Assembly: GCF_988242995.1 (NCBI RefSeq)
Contig: NZ_OZ547043.1
DNA: 64,000 bases
Strand: one strand, 5' to 3'
Shown here: piece by piece, positions 8,300 to 39,838 of the stretch
Numbering within the stretch: the first letter of the stretch is position 1
Layout of the letters: every line of letters begins with the position of its first letter
Position numbers and translations under genes: made by a program
Notes under the pieces: model-generated
Seen by the model: only the letters and a program-made list of their open reading frames with translations
The model's database searches: none
What the model was told of the DNA's origin: nothing

Positions 8300-9055
8300 C
8301 GAACTTTTTAGCCACTGCCAGATGCGGCCAAGCGTTTCATAGCCAACACGATCGCTATGCATCAACCAGACTGGAGAAGGGATTGCCCGTTCCCACGGGT
8401 TAAGCGGCGAGTCGATGGCCAACTGATTCGCCGGGGCTGGCAGCGGATTTAACCCTTCCTGCTGAAAAAAGATCATCGCCCGCGGCAAATGAGACGCGGA
8501 TGTCACCAGCAGGAAAGGGGCGTCACCAATTGCCTGTTTCACTGCCGCAGCTTCTTCTTCGGTATCTTTTGGCAAATCCAGAGTGATAATTTGCTCGCGC
8601 GGCACGCCCAGCGATTGCGCAACTCGGGCACCTACTTCGGCTGTACTCACCGTATTGGTTTTTGCTACGCCTCCCGTGAAGATCAGTTTTGATCCCGGAT
8701 TTTCGCGCCATAAGCGAATACCTTCATTCAGGCGGGGCAGACTGTTATTGATTAAATTCGAGCTTGGTGCCCACTGCGGGTTCCAGGTATAACCACCTCC
8801 GAGCACCACGATATAGTCCACTTTTTGCGAATTATTCCATGTCGGATAGGTGCTTTCGATGGGACGCAGCAGGCGGTCGGCTACCGGTTGCAAACTCAAT
8901 AACAAGAGCGCCAGCCACCCAATGCTAATAAAAATCTTCCCGGTTTTTTGAAAACGGCTAAACCACAGCAGCGCCAGGCCAGCGCCAATAATCAACAACA
9001 TTAGCGGAAGTGGCAGCAACATATTGCCAATCACTTTTTTCAGTGTAAAAAGCAT
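8276..9055 (-). CDS. elyC: Envelope biogenesis factor ElyC (DUF218 family)
   Basis: 259 aa; N-terminal TM helices then DUF218-type domain; ATG (minus strand) at 9055-9053. Confidence 0.92.
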   Translation of the reverse strand: MLFTLKKVIGNMLLPLPLMLLIIGAGLALLWFSRFQKTGKIFISIGWLALLLLSLQPVADRLLRPIESTYPTWNNSQKVDYIVVLGGGYTWNPQWAPSSNLINNSLPRLNEGIRLWRENPGSKLIFTGGVAKTNTVSTAEVGARVAQSLGVPREQIITLDLPKDTEEEAAAVKQAIGDAPFLLVTSASHLPRAMIFFQQEGLNPLPAPANQLAIDSPLNPWERAIPSPVWLMHSDRVGYETLGRIWQWLKSSSGEPRQE

Positions 9056-9065
9056 CCTTTCTGGT
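9055..9065. repeat. Target-site duplication (left copy) of IS4, tcctttctggt
   Basis: Identical 11-mer directly abuts both IS4 ends (9055-9065 and 10492-10502); an extra flanking a makes it arguably 12 bp. Confidence 0.85.
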
Positions 9066-9083
9066 TAATGCCGATCAGTTAAG
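9066..9083. repeat. IS4 left terminal inverted repeat
   Basis: taatgccgatcagttaag; reverse complement of right end with 2 mismatches. Confidence 0.85.
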
Positions 9084-9149
9084 GATCAGTTGACCGATCC
9101 AGTGGCTGTGTAAGAATCCGGAAACGCTCACTTGTTTCCGGATTTTTTT

Positions 9150-10478
9150 ATGCACATTGGACAGGCTCTTGATCTGGTATCCCGTTACGATTCTCTGCGT
9201 AACCCACTGACTTCTCTGGGGGATTACCTCGACCCCGAACTCATCTCTCGTTGCCTTGCCGAATCAGGTACTGTAACGCTACGCAAGCGCCGTCTTCCCC
9301 TCGAAATGATGGTCTGGTGTATTGTTGGCATGGCGCTTGAGCGTAAAGAACCTCTTCACCAGATTGTGAATCGCCTGGACATCATGCTGCCGGGCAATCG
9401 CCCCTTCGTTGCCCCCAGTGCCGTTATTCAGGCCCGCCAGCGCCTGGGAAGTGAGGCTGTCCGCCGCGTGTTCACGAAAACAGCGCAGCTCTGGCATAAC
9501 GCCACGCCGCATCCGCACTGGTGCGGCCTGACCCTGCTGGCCATCGATGGTGTGTTCTGGCGCACACCGGATACACCAGAGAACGATGCAGCCTTCCCCC
9601 GCCAGACACATGCCGGGAACCCGGCGCTCTACCCGCAGGTCAAAATGGTCTGCCAGATGGAACTGACCAGCCATCTGCTGACGGCTGCAGCCTTCGGCAC
9701 GATGAAGAACAGCGAAAATGAGCTTGCTGAGCAACTTATAGAACAAACCGGCGATAACACTCTGACGTTAATGGATAAAGGTTATTACTCACTGGGACTG
9801 TTAAATGCCTGGAGCCTGGCGGGAGAACACCGCCACTGGATGATACCTCTCAGAAAGGGAGCGCAATATGAAGAGATCAGAAAACTGGGTAAAGGCGATC
9901 ATCTGGTGAAGCTGAAAACCAGCCCGCAGGCACGAAAAAAGTGGCCGGGACTGGGAAATGAAGTGACTGCCCGCCTGCTGACCGTGACGCGCAAAGGAAA
10001 AGTCTGCCATCTGCTGACGTCGATGACGGACGCCATGCGCTTCCCCGGAGGAGAAATGGGGGATCTGTACAGTCATCGCTGGGAAATCGAACTGGGATAC
10101 AGGGAGATAAAACAGACGATGCAACGGAGCAGGCTGACGCTGAGAAGTAAAAAGCCGGAGCTTGTGGAGCAAGAGCTGTGGGGTGTCTTACTGGCTTATA
10201 ATCTGGTGAGATATCAGATGATTAAAATGGCGGAACATCTGAAAGGTTACTGGCCGAATCAACTGAGTTTCTCAGAATCATGCGGAATGGTGATGAGAAT
10301 GCTGATGACATTGCAGGGCGCTTCACCGGGACGTATACCGGAGCTGATGCGCGATCTTGCAAGTATGGGACAACTTGTGAAATTACCGACAAGAAGGGAA
10401 AGGGCCTTCCCGAGAGTGGTAAAGGAGAGGCCCTGGAAATACCCCACAGCCCCGAAAAAGAGCCAGTCAGTTGCTTAA
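9150..10478 (+). CDS. insG: IS4 transposase (InsG-like, DDE family)
   Basis: 442 aa from ATG at 9150 (track ORF starts 6 codons earlier at an alternative TTG); translation matches IS4 transposase; stop lies inside right IR. Confidence 0.93.
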
Positions 10479-10491
10479 CTGACTGGCATTA
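10474..10491. repeat. IS4 right terminal inverted repeat
   Basis: cttaactgactggcatta. Confidence 0.85.
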
Positions 10492-10502
10492 TCCTTTCTG
10501 GT
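10492..10502. repeat. Target-site duplication (right copy) of IS4, tcctttctggt
   Basis: Exact repeat of 9055-9065. Confidence 0.85.
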
Positions 10503-10627
10503 TCCTTTTTTAACCATATAGCAAGGGATCGCCAGCGATATTACACCAGACGGGTTCATTCTCGCCGTGGCTGTGACAAAATAGCGTCTTTATCAGAAAA
10601 CGTCTTAGCCAACCGGTGGAGAAAGCA

Positions 10628-32893: not shown

Positions 32894-33849
32894 AATTGTT
32901 TTCCTTCCAGTTGAGTGGGCTGCCAGATGCGCTGGCGAATATCGACTTTTTTAGGCACCAGACGATTTTCATAAAACAGATCTGCCGTTTGCTGCTGTAA
33001 GGCGGCAACTTCGGCGTTAACCGGTTTGATGGTGGTAGGGGGGCGATGATCTAAATAAGAGGCAATCACCGGGGCCGGTAAGCCCATCGTTTTTGCCAGT
33101 AAAGCGATGCTTTGCTCGCGCTGGCTGCGGGTTAACGCATCGGCCTCACTAAAGGTTGCCAATACGCCCTGAATAAAAGCACCGTTTTTTTCTGCATACG
33201 GACGGGCAGCCAGATAAAACGATCCGGTCTGATTGAGATCGGTGCCGTCTTTTAGCACCCGCACGCCGCCCTGTAATAATGCAGCGGAGTAGTAGGGATC
33301 CCAGATAGCCCAGGCGTCGACGTTACCTTGCTGGAACGCGGCGCGGGCATCGGCAGGTGTCAGGTAAGTGGGCTGGATATCCGTGAATTTAAGCCCGGCC
33401 TGGCGTAGTGCGCGTAGTAAAAGATTGTGCGAGCTGGAACCTTTCTGAAAGGCAACTTTGTGACCTTTAAGATCGGCTACGGTTTTGATCGGGCTGTTAT
33501 CTGCCACCAGAATCACTTCGGCTTTGGGCTTCGGCGGCTCGACGCCCACGTATACCAAATCAGCCCCGGCAGCCTGGGCAAAGATTGGCGGAATATCCCC
33601 GGTACTGCCGAGATCAATACTGCCAACGTTTAACGCCTCCAGCATCTGTGGGCCAGCCGGGAACTCCACCCAGGAGATTTTGGTTTGCAGATAGCGTTTT
33701 TCCAGTAACTGGTGGCTTTTTGCCAGCACCATACCAATACTGCCTTTCTGATAGCCTATACGTAACGCTTCAGGAGAGGATTCTGCAGCAACCGCAATCG
33801 TAGAGACGCTAAGTAAGCCCGCCAGCGCCAGTTGAATGATGTTACGCAT
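32890..33849 (-). CDS. ssuA: Aliphatic sulfonate periplasmic binding protein SsuA
   Basis: 319 aa from [15 protein letters not shown] (signal peptide); track ORF over-extended upstream into ssuE. Confidence 0.9.
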
Positions 33850-34417
33850 GGGCATTACCTCGCAGAGACAGAAGATCGGGAACCTGAACATCGCGGCGGT
33901 GCAGCGCCTGCCAGAAAGTTTCCAGCGCGGTATCAAGACGGGTTTGCAGATTTGGCGTGAACTGCGGCTTGTGGTGGTAATCAATCACCTGTGAGTCATC
34001 GGCAAACACGCCGTGCAGGATCTCCTGGGCTTTCAGCGCACTTAAAACTGGTTTAAGGGCGTAATCGACCGCCAGCAGATGAGCCACCGTGCCGCCCGTC
34101 GCCAGTGGCAGTACCACTTTGCCTTGCAAAGCGCGTTCTGGCAGCAGGTCGAGCAGGGTTTTCAGCGCGCCGGAATAGGCGGCTTTATACACAGGTGTAG
34201 CGATTATCAGTCCATCGGCCTGTTGCAGTTGTTCGGTGAAGGTCTTGAGTGCCGGACTATCGAAACGAGCATAAAGCAGATCTTCCGGGGCAAAGTTTTG
34301 CAGATTCCAGTGATAAACCTCTACATCCAGGCCATTCAGTTTTTCCCGCGCATATTCCAGCAAGGAGCTGGAGCGAGAAGGAAAGCGAGGACTACCCGCC
34401 AGGGTGATGACACGCAT
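33842..34417 (-). CDS. ssuE: NADPH-dependent FMN reductase SsuE
   Basis: 191 aa; first gene of ssuEADCB; overlaps ssuA start by 8 bp. Confidence 0.94.
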   Translation of the reverse strand: MRVITLAGSPRFPSRSSSLLEYAREKLNGLDVEVYHWNLQNFAPEDLLYARFDSPALKTFTEQLQQADGLIIATPVYKAAYSGALKTLLDLLPERALQGKVVLPLATGGTVAHLLAVDYALKPVLSALKAQEILHGVFADDSQVIDYHHKPQFTPNLQTRLDTALETFWQALHRRDVQVPDLLSLRGNAHA

Positions 34418-34553
34418 ACTCTCTCCTTATAACCAATTGTTCTTTTTTTGTTAACATTGATAGCAATTCGGTCAGTCTGACAGAGGTGGCCCGCGAGTCG
34501 AAATGATTTATCTGAGGAAGAAAAGCCAAAAAAAGCATAAAAAAAGCGCAATA

Positions 34554-34569
34554 AGAAAACGTTTGCTAT
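34554..34569. promoter_or_regulatory. Candidate PurR box in pyrD upstream region
   Basis: agaaAAACGTTTgcta contains the central AAACGTTT core of the PurR operator consensus; about 85 bp upstream of pyrD ATG. Confidence 0.4.
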
Positions 34570-34653
34570 TTATTGCCACAGGTCAATTCCCTTTTGGTCC
34601 GAACTCGCACATAATACGCCCCCGGTTTGCACACCGGGAATCCAGGAGAGTTC

Positions 34654-35664
34654 ATGTACTACCCCTTCGTTCGTAAAGCCCTTTTCCAGCTCGATCCAGA
34701 GCGCGCTCATGAGTTTACTTTTCAGCAATTACGCCGTATTACAGGAACGCCGTTTGAAGCACTGGTGCGGCAGAAAGTGCCTGCGAAACCTGTTAACTGC
34801 ATGGGCCTGACGTTTAAAAATCCGCTTGGTCTGGCAGCCGGTCTTGATAAAGACGGGGAGTGCATTGACGCGTTAGGCGCGATGGGATTTGGATCGATCG
34901 AGATCGGTACCGTCACGCCACGTCCACAGCCAGGTAATGACAAGCCGCGTCTCTTTCGTCTGGTAGATGCCGAAGGTTTGATCAACCGTATGGGCTTTAA
35001 TAATCTTGGCGTTGATAACCTCGTAGAGAACGTAAAAAAAGCCCATTATGATGGCGTCCTGGGTATTAACATCGGCAAAAATAAAGATACGCCGGTGGAG
35101 CAGGGTAAAGATGACTATCTGATTTGTATGGAAAAAATCTATGCTTATGCGGGATATATCGCCATCAATATTTCATCGCCGAATACACCGGGATTACGTA
35201 CTCTGCAATATGGCGAAGCGCTGGATGATCTCTTAACCGCGATTAAAAATAAGCAAAATGATTTGCAAGCGATGCACCATAAATATGTGCCGATCGCAGT
35301 GAAGATCGCGCCGGATCTTTCTGAAGAAGAATTGATCCAGGTTGCCGATAGTTTAGTTCGCCATAATATTGATGGCGTTATTGCAACCAATACCACACTC
35401 GATCGTTCTCTGGTTCAGGGAATGAAAAATTGTGATCAAACCGGTGGCTTAAGTGGTCGTCCGCTTCAGTTAAAAAGCACCGAAATTATTCGCCGTTTAT
35501 CACAGGAATTAAATGGTCGCTTACCGATCATCGGTGTTGGCGGCATCGACTCGGTTATCGCTGCGCGTGAAAAGATTGCTGCGGGGGCCTCACTGGTGCA
35601 AATCTATTCTGGTTTTATTTTTAAAGGTCCGCCGCTGATTAAAGAAATCGTTACCCATATCTAA
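34654..35664 (+). CDS. pyrD: Dihydroorotate dehydrogenase (quinone) PyrD
   Basis: 336 aa from [11 protein letters not shown]; track ORF starts 9 codons upstream. Confidence 0.96.
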
Positions 35665-35696
35665 TTATTTCTTCGAATTCCTCTTTATAAGATAAT

Positions 35697-35727
35697 CAGG
35701 GCTTTATTTTAAGCCCTGGTTGTTTTA
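35697..35727 (+). terminator. Rho-independent terminator after pyrD
   Basis: cagggctt-tatttta-agccctg hairpin followed by T-rich tract. Confidence 0.75.
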
Positions 35728-35837
35728 TATTCATCACTGTTGCTTATTTAGACATTTTGTACTTTTATTGTTGAGGTTATTAAGCGAAGCGACAATGGAT
35801 TGTGTTGCTGCGGTTTTATAGGGTAGGGGAGAGGCAA

Positions 35838-36380
35838 ATGCGAATTAAACCAGATGATAACTGGCGTTGGTATTACGATGAAGAGCACGATCGAATGATG
35901 CTCGATTTAGCCAATGGTATGCTATTTCGCTCACGTTTTGCGCGCAAAATGTTGACTCCAGATGCCTTTTCTCCCGCAGGCTTTTGCGTTGACGACGCCG
36001 CGCTCTATTTCTCATTTGAAGAAAAATGCCGCGATTTTAATTTATCTAAAGAACAAAAAGCCGAACTGGTGCTTAATGCGCTGGTAGCAATTCGTTATCT
36101 CAAACCGCAAATGCCGAAAAGCTGGCATTTTGTTTCCCATGGTGAAATGTGGGTGCCAATGCCGGGCGATGCGGCCTGCGTTTGGTTGAGCGACACTCAC
36201 GAGCAAGTCAATTTGCTGGTCGTTGAATCTGGCGAAAATGCCGCACTATGCCTGCTGGCACAACCCTGCGTTGTTATTGCGGGTCGCGCGATGCAGCTGG
36301 GCGACGCCATCAAAATCATGAACGACAGGCTGAAACCGCAGGTGAATGTTGACAGCTTCAGCCTCGAACAGGCAGTCTAA
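35838..36380 (+). CDS. zapC: Cell division protein ZapC (YcbW)
   Basis: 180 aa from [24 protein letters not shown]; 4-bp overlap with convergent ycbX. Confidence 0.92.
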
Positions 36381-37486
36381 CGCGTCAGCTTAAGCGCAGT
36401 CTTCGGTACACAGCTACAGCAAAGAATGGTGCCATCATCGCCCATTGCTGATTTTTTCAGCGGCGTGACTTCGCCTTCTAAAAGCTGAACACGGCAACTT
36501 CCACAAATGCCCACGCGGCAAGAATAAGGGATACGAATTCCCTGATTTTCTAATTGCTCCAGCAACACTTGTTGGTTATTTCCACGAAATGCCTGTCCCT
36601 GCCAGTCAATATCTACATTTGCGTCCGGTTGTTGCGTGATGTTGGCGGTATCATCAGCGGCAGCTGCGCCGTAAATTTTTGCCGGAGCCGTTGCCAGAAT
36701 TTCCACCTCATCGCCAACGCGAATCACGCCGCTATTACGGGCAATTAAATTCTGACCAAAATCGACATCGCCGTTATCCTGGGCAGTGCGGAAAGATTGC
36801 AATGTTTTTAATGGTTCGCCTGCCGGATGTTTTTGCCCTTTTTCTGGACTGACGGTGGTGAAAATACAGCGGCTACAAGGTTTAACCACATCAAACACCA
36901 CATCACCAATGCGAATCACTTTCCAGCTATCTTCTTCCCAGGCTGACGCGCCGGAAACCACCAGATTGGGGCGGAATTGCTCCATTTTTACACTGGCCGG
37001 ACAACGTTGTTGGAGATCACGTAACGAGGCTTCGTTAGCAAGAAGGTAAGGATAGCCATCAGCAAATGACAGGGGTACAGTGTTGTGGCGTTTCACGCGC
37101 CGCGTCATTTGTGGCCCCACCCAGCGCAACTGCACTTCGCGGGAGAAAAATCCACTTAGCCATTTGTTGATCGCGTCTGGTGCAATTCGCGCGGTAAAAT
37201 GTGTGCCCCAAACTTCGGTTGGTGCGTCTTGTGTGGCGAAATCAGCAAAACGAACATATGCGCTACTGCCATCTGGTGCGGTGAGATGCAAGCCATCATG
37301 CACAGGTGAAGGAGTAAACCGTACCATCTGGGGAAACTGGCGAGCGGTAATAAACGTACCGTCAGGTTCCGTGATCATATAGATGCGATCGAAGGCCAGA
37401 CCACTGACATCTGCCAGAGCATGTGTAAGACCAATGCCGCGCATCGATTTAACAGGATGAATATAAAGCCGGGTTAATGTCGCCAC
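36377..37486 (-). CDS. ycbX: MOSC-domain 2Fe-2S protein YcbX
   Basis: 369 aa; C-terminal ferredoxin-like cysteines CRVGICGSC...CC. Confidence 0.92.
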
Positions 37487-37729: not shown

Positions 37730-39838
37730 ATGAATTCTCTGTTTGCCAGTACGGCCCGTGGGCTGGAAGAGCTGTTAAAAACTGAACTGGAAAACCTGGG
37801 GGCCGTTGAATGCCAGGTGGTTCAGGGTGGGGTCCATTTCAAGGGCGACACACGGCTTGTTTACCAGAGCCTGATGTGGAGCCGCCTGGCCTCGCGTATT
37901 ATGTTGCCGCTGGGCGAGTGTAAGGTTTACAGCGATTTAGACCTCTATCTCGGTGTTCAGGCGATCAACTGGACAGAGATGTTTAATCCTGGCGCGACCT
38001 TCGCTGTCCACTTCAGTGGTTTGAATGACACCATCCGCAACAGTCAGTACGGTGCGATGAAAGTGAAAGACGCGATTGTCGATGCTTTCACGCGGAAAAA
38101 TCTGCCGCGTCCAAATGTTGATCGCGATGCGCCGGATATTCGCGTTAACGTCTGGCTGCATAAAGAAACCGCCAGTATCGCCCTTGATCTCAGTGGTGAT
38201 GGTTTACATCTGCGTGGCTATCGCGATCGTGCTGGTATTGCGCCGATCAAAGAAACCCTGGCAGCCGCGATTGTTATGCGATCCGGCTGGCAGCCAGGAA
38301 CACCGCTGCTCGATCCGATGTGTGGTTCCGGTACGTTGCTGATTGAAGCGGCGATGCTGGCGACCGATCGCGCACCAGGCTTGCACCGTGGGCGTTGGGG
38401 CTTTAGCGGCTGGGCGCAGCATGATGAAGCTATCTGGCAGGAAGTGAAAGCGGAAGCGCAAACTCGCGCCCGTAAAGGTCTGGCTGAGTACAACTCTCAT
38501 TTCTACGGTTCCGACAGCGATGCGCGGGTGATTCAACGTGCGCGCACCAACGCCCGTCTTGCGGGGATTGGCGAACTGATCACTTTTGAAGTGAAAGATG
38601 TTGCGCAACTGACCAATCCGCTGCCGAAAGGGCCATACGGTACAGTGTTGAGCAACCCGCCTTACGGTGAACGTCTGGACAGCGAACCGGCGCTGATTGC
38701 GCTGCATAGTCTGCTGGGCCGAATCATGAAAAACCAGTTCGGTGGCTGGAATCTCTCTTTGTTTAGTGCCTCGCCGGATCTGCTCAGCTGCCTGCAGCTG
38801 CGTGCAGACAAACAGTACAAGGCGAAAAACGGCCCGCTGGACTGCGTACAGAAAAATTACCACGTTGCCGAAAGCACTCCAGACAGCAAACCGGCGATGG
38901 TAGCGGAAGACTACGCTAACCGCCTGCGTAAGAACCTCAAAAAATTCGAGAAGTGGGCTCGCCAGGAAGGGATTGAATGTTACCGCCTGTATGACGCCGA
39001 TCTGCCGGAATATAACGTTGCCGTTGATCGTTATGCCGACTGGGTGGTGGTGCAGGAGTATGCGCCGCCAAAAACTATTGATGCGCACAAAGCGCGTCAG
39101 CGTCTGTTCGATATTATCGCTGCAACCATTTCGGTACTGGGGATTGCGCCAAACAAACTGGTGCTGAAAACCCGTGAACGCCAGAAGGGCAAAAATCAGT
39201 ACCAGAAACTGGGCGAGAAGGGCGAGTTTCTGGAAGTTACCGAATATAACGCTCACTTGTGGGTGAATCTGACGGATTACCTCGATACCGGTCTGTTCCT
39301 CGATCACCGTATCGCCCGTCGTATGCTCGGCCAGATGAGCAAAGGCAAAGATTTCCTCAACCTGTTCTCTTATACCGGCAGCGCCACCGTGCATGCGGGA
39401 TTAGGCGGTGCACGCAGCACCACCACCGTGGATATGTCGCGTACTTATCTGGAGTGGGCAGAACGCAACCTGCGTCTGAATGGCCTAACCGGGCGTGCGC
39501 ATCGCCTGATTCAGGCCGATTGCCTGGCGTGGCTGCGTGATGCAAATGAACAGTTCGATCTGATCTTTATCGATCCGCCAACCTTCTCTAACTCAAAACG
39601 AATGGAAGATGCGTTTGATGTTCAGCGCGATCATCTGGCGCTGATGAAAGATTTGAAACGTCTGCTGCGTGCAGGCGGGACGATCATGTTCTCGAACAAC
39701 AAACGTGGCTTCCGTATGGATCTTGACGGACTGGCAAAACTAGGACTGAAAGCACAAGAAATTACGCAAAAAACGCTCTCCCAGGATTTCGCCCGTAACC
39801 GCCAGATCCACAACTGCTGGCTGATTACCGCAGCCTGA
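37730..39838 (+). CDS. rlmL: Bifunctional 23S rRNA methyltransferase RlmL/RlmK (YcbY)
   Basis: 702 aa; two SAM-MTase modules ([14 protein letters not shown]; NPPYGER). Confidence 0.95.

Follow-up and report, generated by a model that had tools for sequence, protein, structure and literature searches.

In the E. coli K-12 MG1655 record, the genes around ssuE and pyrD are ordered ssuE-elfA-elfD-elfC-elfG-ycbU-ycbV-ycbF-pyrD, the same order as that given in a sequence-only reading of the DNA described here. In the window (the whole stretch of DNA that was analysed, 64 kb in length), the same two genes are separated by 236 bp. Two explanations had been offered in that reading: either the elf fimbrial operon was cleanly lost from this strain or its lineage never carried it. 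The locus thus raises the question of which state of the ssuE-pyrD site is the older one, empty or occupied, and of how the source strain came to have the empty state.

The ssuE-pyrD locus and its K-12 counterpart

Both ssuE and pyrD are full length in the window based on NCBIfam equivalog models, and ssuA lies downstream of ssuE. The 236-bp gap between the ssuE start (34417) and the pyrD start (34654) contains no ORF and none of the genes for the usher ElfC, the chaperones ElfD and YcbF or the pilin/adhesin proteins ElfA, ElfG, YcbU and YcbV. A tblastn search of the entire 64-kb window with all seven K-12 Elf proteins found no homologs (best match E=0.18), in agreement with the absence first noticed from the letters. 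The spacer, described as AT-rich and promoter-like in the sequence-only reading, has a GC content of 42%, compared to 52% for the entire window, and both a PurR box and a PyrD leader are present (Table 1).

Table 1. Features of the ssuE-pyrD region (positions in the window)
Feature	Position	Strand	Description	Evidence
ssuE	33842-34417	minus	NADPH-dependent FMN reductase, first gene of ssuEADCB	ATG ORF; NCBIfam NF007859, 359 bits; annotated ssuE in matching genomes
Complete ssuE-pyrD spacer	34418-34653		236 bp, between divergent genes; ancestral, elf site empty	Alignment with other spacers; contiguous in 1354/5426 E. coli genomes
ssuE-proximal 62 bp	34418-34479		ssuE ribosome-binding site and conserved TAACATTGATA(A/G)CAATT block	BLAST boundary against K-12; conservation
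75-bp segment without K-12 BLAST match	34480-34554		Ancestral spacer DNA, including AAATGATTTAT (34501-34511)	19-spacer alignment
Haplotype seam interval	34480-35186		Left side NY1601-like, right side ~1% divergent	Mismatch profiles; SNP lists
Three A-tracts, AAAAAAAGC-like	34518-34554		In phase at a spacing of 10-11 bp; promoters of ssuE and pyrD on either side	Direct repeat family D1
Predicted PurR operator of pyrD, AAGAAAACGTTTGCTA	34553-34568		12/14 specified consensus positions	Palindrome I4
PyrD leader	34586-34659	plus		Rfam RF02373, 97.9 bits against a gathering score of 47, E=1.6e-17
pyrD	34654-35664	plus	Quinone-dependent dihydroorotate dehydrogenase	NCBIfam NF003644, 656 bits; annotated pyrD in matching genomes

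The K-12 elfADCG-ycbUVF (ycbQRSTUVF) locus has the same chromosomal position and the same flanking genes as the window, with flank identities of 95.7% on the ssu side and 98.1% on the pyrD side. The breakpoint alignment that had been proposed as a check places the boundaries at 34479 and 34555: following BLAST analysis, K-12 homology reaches 34479 (62 bp upstream of the ssuE start codon) and restarts at 34555 (11 bp past the ycbF stop codon in K-12). Between these breakpoints, K-12 has 7093 bp and the window has 75 bp (34480-34554). The seven genes and the 27% GC leader that make up the 7093 bp are without counterpart in the window, while the 75 bp of the window have only a weak and diverged counterpart in K-12. 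In K-12, the GC content is 46.5% for the elf island, 27% for the leader upstream of elfA and 54.9% for the ssu genes. The 75-bp segment shows no significant local alignment in the K-12 elf region. An origin of this segment from inside elf was considered and rejected, as the whole K-12 elf region gave only chance matches of 13-18 nt.

No IS remnant, flanking direct repeat, residual elf sequence or truncated neighbour gene was found at the junction. Repeats in the spacer are limited to the A-tract run (three tracts, in phase) and to the palindromes of the PurR box and the leader, consistent with the earlier statement that neither IS remnants nor direct repeats are present there.

Control elements in the spacer

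Starting from ssuE, the spacer blocks are ordered as follows: ssuE ribosome-binding site, TAACATTGATA(A/G)CAATT, a CAGAG block, AAATGATTTAT, the A-tracts, the PurR box and the pyrD promoter and leader. Positions 34418-34479 show high identity with elf-positive alleles. The ssu side, which serves the ssuEADCB operon, is activator-dependent (Cbl, CysB), and from its position and conservation the AAATGATTTAT region is a candidate activator (Cbl/CysB)-binding region upstream of the ssuE promoter. The A-tracts (AAGAAAAGCC, AAAAAAAGCA and AAAAAAAGCG) are in helical phase, and the run that they form is probably intrinsically bent DNA; in an alignment of 19 spacers it is found only in those of Escherichia.

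On the pyrD side, the ChIP-chip data of Cho et al. (2011) show PurR bound at pyrD in K-12, with CGGAAAACGTTTGCGT given as the motif (PMC3159470, Table 1). This K-12 box and the window box each agree with the consensus at 12 of its 14 specified positions and are equal in quality. The K-12 16-mer starts 2 nt on the elf side of the homology boundary, such that the right edge of elf lies 2 nt inside the box. The PyrD leader, a promoter-proximal transcript, is nearly invariant across genera in the 19-spacer alignment, and its hairpin (34621-34638) overlaps the ribosome-binding site. A sigma-70 consensus scan of 34300-34800 identified no promoter, a negative that carries no information because both promoters are known to be weak or activator-dependent. 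Two "terminator-like" minus-strand matches in this interval were discounted, one being the pyrD leader hairpin and the other a site inside ssuE.

Outgroup spacers and polarity

A scan for SsuE with one genome per species yielded 80 loci, in each of which the SsuE, SsuA, PyrD, ZapC and Elf proteins were mapped. Among these loci, ssuE and pyrD are divergently adjacent in approximately 70 species of at least 15 genera, including Citrobacter, Enterobacter, Klebsiella, Raoultella, Kosakonia, Leclercia, Lelliottia, Kluyvera, Buttiauxella, Cedecea, Yokenella, Pluralibacter and Franconibacter. Three non-coli-type Escherichia (E69, MOD1-EC7003 and SCPM-O-B-8794) show the same arrangement, with a spacer that is likewise 236 bp. 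Polarity within the genus rests on these three elf-less representatives and one elf-positive non-coli representative, together with the other genera; E. albertii, E. fergusonii and E. marmotae are absent from the 80 loci kept, which is a gap in the polarity argument.

The 18 outgroup spacers that were measured, from these three Escherichia and 15 other genera or species, are 227-255 bp in length, and the window has the form of such an empty site (ssuE and pyrD divergent and ~230-255 bp apart). The ssuE ribosome-binding site, TAACATTGATAACAATT, AAATGATTTAT, the PurR box, the pyrD promoter and the leader are present in the window in this order and are collinear with the other spacers. The spacers of Citrobacter, Enterobacter, Klebsiella, Kosakonia and related Enterobacteriaceae share gene order, orientation and conserved blocks with the window, while the sequence between the blocks has diverged and the A-tract run at 34518-34554 is specific to Escherichia. 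In the 19-spacer alignment, the 75-bp segment that K-12 lacks is homologous to the spacers of other Escherichia, Citrobacter, Enterobacter, Klebsiella, Kosakonia and Cedecea, and the AAATGATTTAT block (34501-34511) within it is conserved in Escherichia and as far out as Klebsiella and Cedecea.

Because the 75-bp segment aligns with outgroup spacers and deletion of elf cannot regenerate it, the empty site is ancestral. We consider it highly probable, taking this explanation as a whole, that the empty spacer is the ancestral allele and that elf is the derived, inserted state. With respect to the DNA allele, the suggestion that elf was never carried is therefore right, while that of a clean deletion is refuted; the history of the strain itself is less simple, as described below. 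A clean deletion would be an illegitimate or IS-mediated event that removed elf from a K-12-type allele and left a 236-bp scar. The bare absence of the operon is what such an event would produce, and nothing more speaks for it. It is extremely improbable for four reasons. First, the junction is free of IS remnants, of flanking direct repeats and of leftover elf sequence. Second, outgroup spacers contain homologs of the 75 bp that K-12 lacks, and no deletion can create these. Third, the same junction sequence occurs in 1352 genomes at 95-100% identity. Fourth, the ssuE-proximal spacer of the K-12-type allele is highly diverged and cannot yield that of the window.

Among the 80 loci kept, elf lies between ssuE and pyrD only in Escherichia sp. 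E1V33 and Pseudocitrobacter. The amino-acid identity of the Elf proteins to those of K-12 is 82-86% for most genes in E1V33 and 55-74% in Pseudocitrobacter. An elf-like seven-gene operon was observed in the ssuE-pyrD site of Pseudocitrobacter faecalis (L030, 2790-9529), a Pseudocitrobacter MAG (L038, 2-3417) and E1V33 (L003, 2872-9646), and the site is empty in all other genera sampled. An old insertion followed by many losses would also account for elf at one and the same site in Pseudocitrobacter and E1V33, although loss of the deletion type cannot remake the ancestral spacer. González-Alba et al. (2019) read the E. coli pattern as loss in the (F)G-B2 lineage (PMC6896753).

The elf-positive allele and the entry of elf

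K-12 and E1V33 have both junction sequences in common, and Pseudocitrobacter shares the right junction. In all three, the ycbF stop is followed by ~10 bp and then GAAAACGTTTGCGTTTTTTTTG at this junction; in elf-less Escherichia and Citrobacter, it reads GAAAACG(T/A)TTGC-TATTTATTG. The GCGTTTTTTTTG tail common to K-12, E1V33 and Pseudocitrobacter differs from the GC-TATTTATTG of elf-less Escherichia. To the left of elf, the elf-positive alleles contain degenerate copies of the spacer blocks (GGAGAG, AAATATAAATT and CTGAAAATAAACTAA) in register after CAGTCTG. When scored with a profile from elf-less spacers, the in-register offset outscored every other offset in each intergenic region, and the observed score was reached by 5 of 5000 shuffles for K-12, 3 of 5000 for E1V33 and 0 of 5000 for Pseudocitrobacter; the in-register similarity of the K-12 copy is weak, at ~38% identity. 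From these comparisons, the elf-positive allele seems to carry its own, far more diverged copy of the ssuE-proximal spacer, and the original insertion point seems to lie between this copy and the PurR box. With an insertion point at this position, both promoters would keep their cis elements.

The K-12 insert contains no integrase, tRNA, att-type or flanking repeats, only the seven fimbrial genes. It does not have the features of a classical genomic island, and its junctions lie inside the promoter region. The diverged spacer copy in elf-positive alleles suggests homologous recombination via the ssuE and pyrD flanks, rather than site-specific or transposon entry. The elf operon is an insertion of ~7.1 kb into the ssuE-pyrD spacer, at a point immediately before the pyrD PurR operator. 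We propose that it was inserted once in some enterobacterial lineage and was afterwards spread or retained via homologous recombination through the conserved flanks. Both alleles persist in E. coli (~75% elf-positive, 25% empty). Ordinary homologous recombination moves them from lineage to lineage, and recombination tracts may stop at the heterology of 7 kb.

This proposal can be extended to a cassette that moves across lineages and genera (E. coli, E1V33 and Pseudocitrobacter) purely by homologous recombination. The polymorphism would then be long-lived and possibly trans-species, with the 7-kb heterology acting as a hard stop for tracts and so giving rise both to haplotype seams and to unusually deep divergence in ssuA-ssuE; we regard this extension as quite possible, though short of probable. 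Between K-12 and E1V33, identity is 74-84% for elf and 86-92% for the flanks, a contrast that is compatible with both a vertical and a horizontal history and does not separate the two because fimbrial genes evolve fast.

Insertion at this point would have placed elf between the divergent promoters with neither control region destroyed. As a result, the DNA upstream of the ssuE promoter differs between elf-positive and elf-less strains, and this difference could affect sulfonate-sulfur regulation.

Distribution of the two alleles in E. coli

The survey of E. coli suggested in the sequence-only reading was carried out on 5426 complete genomes. ssuE and pyrD are contiguous in 1354 of these (25%), while 4073 have an elf match, including at least 80% of the cluster in 3998. 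As the two counts sum to 5427, the states are essentially mutually exclusive and a relocated elf is extremely rare at most. It follows that elf elsewhere in the source genome is very unlikely; although the window is a single stretch of 64 kb, the source genome is very likely elf-free outside it as well. The 75-bp segment occurs in 1352 of the 5426 genomes, once per genome, always in the chromosome and always at the ssuE-pyrD junction, at 95-100% identity.

Carriers of the empty allele include LF82 and Seattle 1946 (ATCC 25922), both of phylogroup B2, and 042 (group D). The empty-site allele of B2 and some group D strains, as seen in these three genomes, has the same 236-bp spacer as the window and the same 75-bp segment at 95-100% identity. 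The window allele is a minor subtype of the empty allele, in that only 39 genomes match it at 99% identity or higher over 34470-34565. It also differs from the B2/D allele in the left flank to which it is joined, exact matches to which are otherwise found in elf-positive strains only.

According to Wurpel et al. (2013), Ycb is present in groups A, B1, D and E, and Auf, which is related to Ycb and mutually exclusive with it, in B2 (PMC3559732); González-Alba et al. (2019) placed ycb among the adhesins "lost" by the G-B2 or F-G-B2 lineage (PMC6896753). The presence/absence polymorphism of elf is thus common and already documented. Lack of Elf/Ycb is a normal allele of 25% of E. coli, the B2 and 042-like (group D) strains that were checked among them, and not a strain-specific lesion. 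The practical value of this result is limited. The additions made here are modest: a sequence-based polarity (gain of elf, not loss) and a recombination seam at the site. With the event polarized as a gain, and the ancestral spacer intact in elf-less strains, the published description of ycb as "lost" in the G-B2 lineage requires qualification.

Haplotype seam at the elf site

The earlier reading held that the mechanism is not visible at the junction. This is correct insofar as there is no scar or repeat, but recombination is in part visible from the flanking haplotypes. The left flank, from ~4.5 kb to 34479, shows 2 mismatches in ~30 kb when compared to the elf-positive strain NY1601, an IS insertion aside. 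NY1601 and the window also share two rare alleles within 34418-34479, 34445T and 34463G, neither of which is carried by the elf-less strains O169:H41 and AF39. To the right of the junction, the first substitution relative to NY1601 past the junction-proximal indels is at 35187, after which divergence is ~1% to 64000; sliding mismatch profiles show that the right block is also ~1% divergent from AF39 up to 64000. Two haplotype blocks, each of at least 29 kb, thus meet in a seam at the elf site. This seam cannot be placed more finely than 34480-35186, as the window is identical there to three of the four comparators (NY1601 beyond 34565-34572, O169:H41 and AF39). The coincidence was noticed post hoc; with two breakpoints seen in 64 kb, the probability of one lying within this interval by chance is ~2%.

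A chimeric or collapsed assembly that joined contigs of two strains at the ssuE-pyrD spacer would also produce an abrupt haplotype switch at the junction. Such an artefact is very improbable, as the junction is a natural allele, identical over 34470-34565 to those of AF39 and CFSAN018748 and over 34464-35603 to that of O169:H41. In addition, AF39 and NY1601 are mosaic to each other too, and mosaic flanks are normal in E. coli. Because the left flank matches elf-positive strains and the right flank belongs to another haplotype, we conclude from these alignments that homologous recombination acted at the elf site in the source strain.

Two histories fit these data: an elf-less genome may have imported the left block as far as the edge of homology, or an elf-positive genome may have received the right block along with the empty allele. 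In the second history, elf was lost secondarily by allelic replacement. An elf-positive ancestor similar to NY1601 and Z1323HEC0462 would have imported an elf-less block of at least 29 kb, with its left end only a few bases short of the junction, and the elf of this ancestor would have been overwritten by the ancestral empty allele. Consistent with this, the ssuA-ssuE haplotype beside the junction (including 34445T and 34463G) has exact matches in only two genomes, NY1601 and Z1323HEC0462, both of which are elf-positive, while the best elf-less match over 33000-34653 is 98.9% identical. The far-left 4.2 kb falls in the same group, and the right block is unlike that group. Nevertheless, the association rests on two elf-positive genomes that are possibly one clone, and the left-haplotype group is polymorphic, as it includes the elf-less AF39. 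The left crossover would also have to lie within ~16 bp (34464-34479) if the donor had the usual G and A alleles, and the reverse direction, import of the left block into an elf-less genome, accounts for the same data. We therefore consider allelic replacement possible but somewhat doubtful.

The best matches of the far-left and far-right sequences were used to seek the direction of transfer. The far-left 4.2 kb is 99.9% identical to both Z1323HEC0462 (elf-positive) and AF39 (elf-less), and the right block is without a close relative, its best matches being elf-less strains (such as A10, 042, ST2747 and O169:H41) at 99.0-99.3%. The right block is rare, with D-type strains nearest to it, and these matches fit either direction. 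Short-patch conversion in AF39 relative to NY1601 was also considered and was rejected, since a divergence of ~0.7% between the right flanks of the two strains extends across at least 23 kb, with no clean patch.

Several further observations concern the sequences around the site. Variants at 35604, 35736, 35855, 36158, 36513 and 36569, and also at 37380 and 37464, are private to the window with respect to NY1601, AF39, O169:H41 and K-12 (K-12 up to 36886). These private variants (35604-37464) suggest that the right block derives from a lineage not represented among the 5426 complete genomes. Over the 5' half of ssuA and ssuE (33000-34479), approximately 5000 of the 5426 E. coli genomes are only 90-95% identical to the window, and divergence from K-12 is 6% in 33001-34000, far beyond the usual within-species level. 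This suggests old allelic lineages or introgression beside the elf site.

In the O169:H41 strain, whose pyrD region is the closest to that of the window, IS1397 (IS3-like) lies between pepN and ssuB (L002, 767-2115); the window does not carry it. The window has a 1424-bp IS4-family element between elyC and cmoM (9067-10490, with a transposase ORF at 9132-10478; NF033592, 299 bits), which is bordered by an exact 13-bp target-site duplication, ATCCTTTCTGGTT (9054-10503), and is absent at this position from NY1601 and AF39. Finally, positions 38001-39000 (rlmKL) show 40-48 mismatches/kb relative to NY1601, AF39 and O169:H41, compared to 4-20/kb in the neighbouring kilobases; a short segment of a divergent donor was probably imported here.
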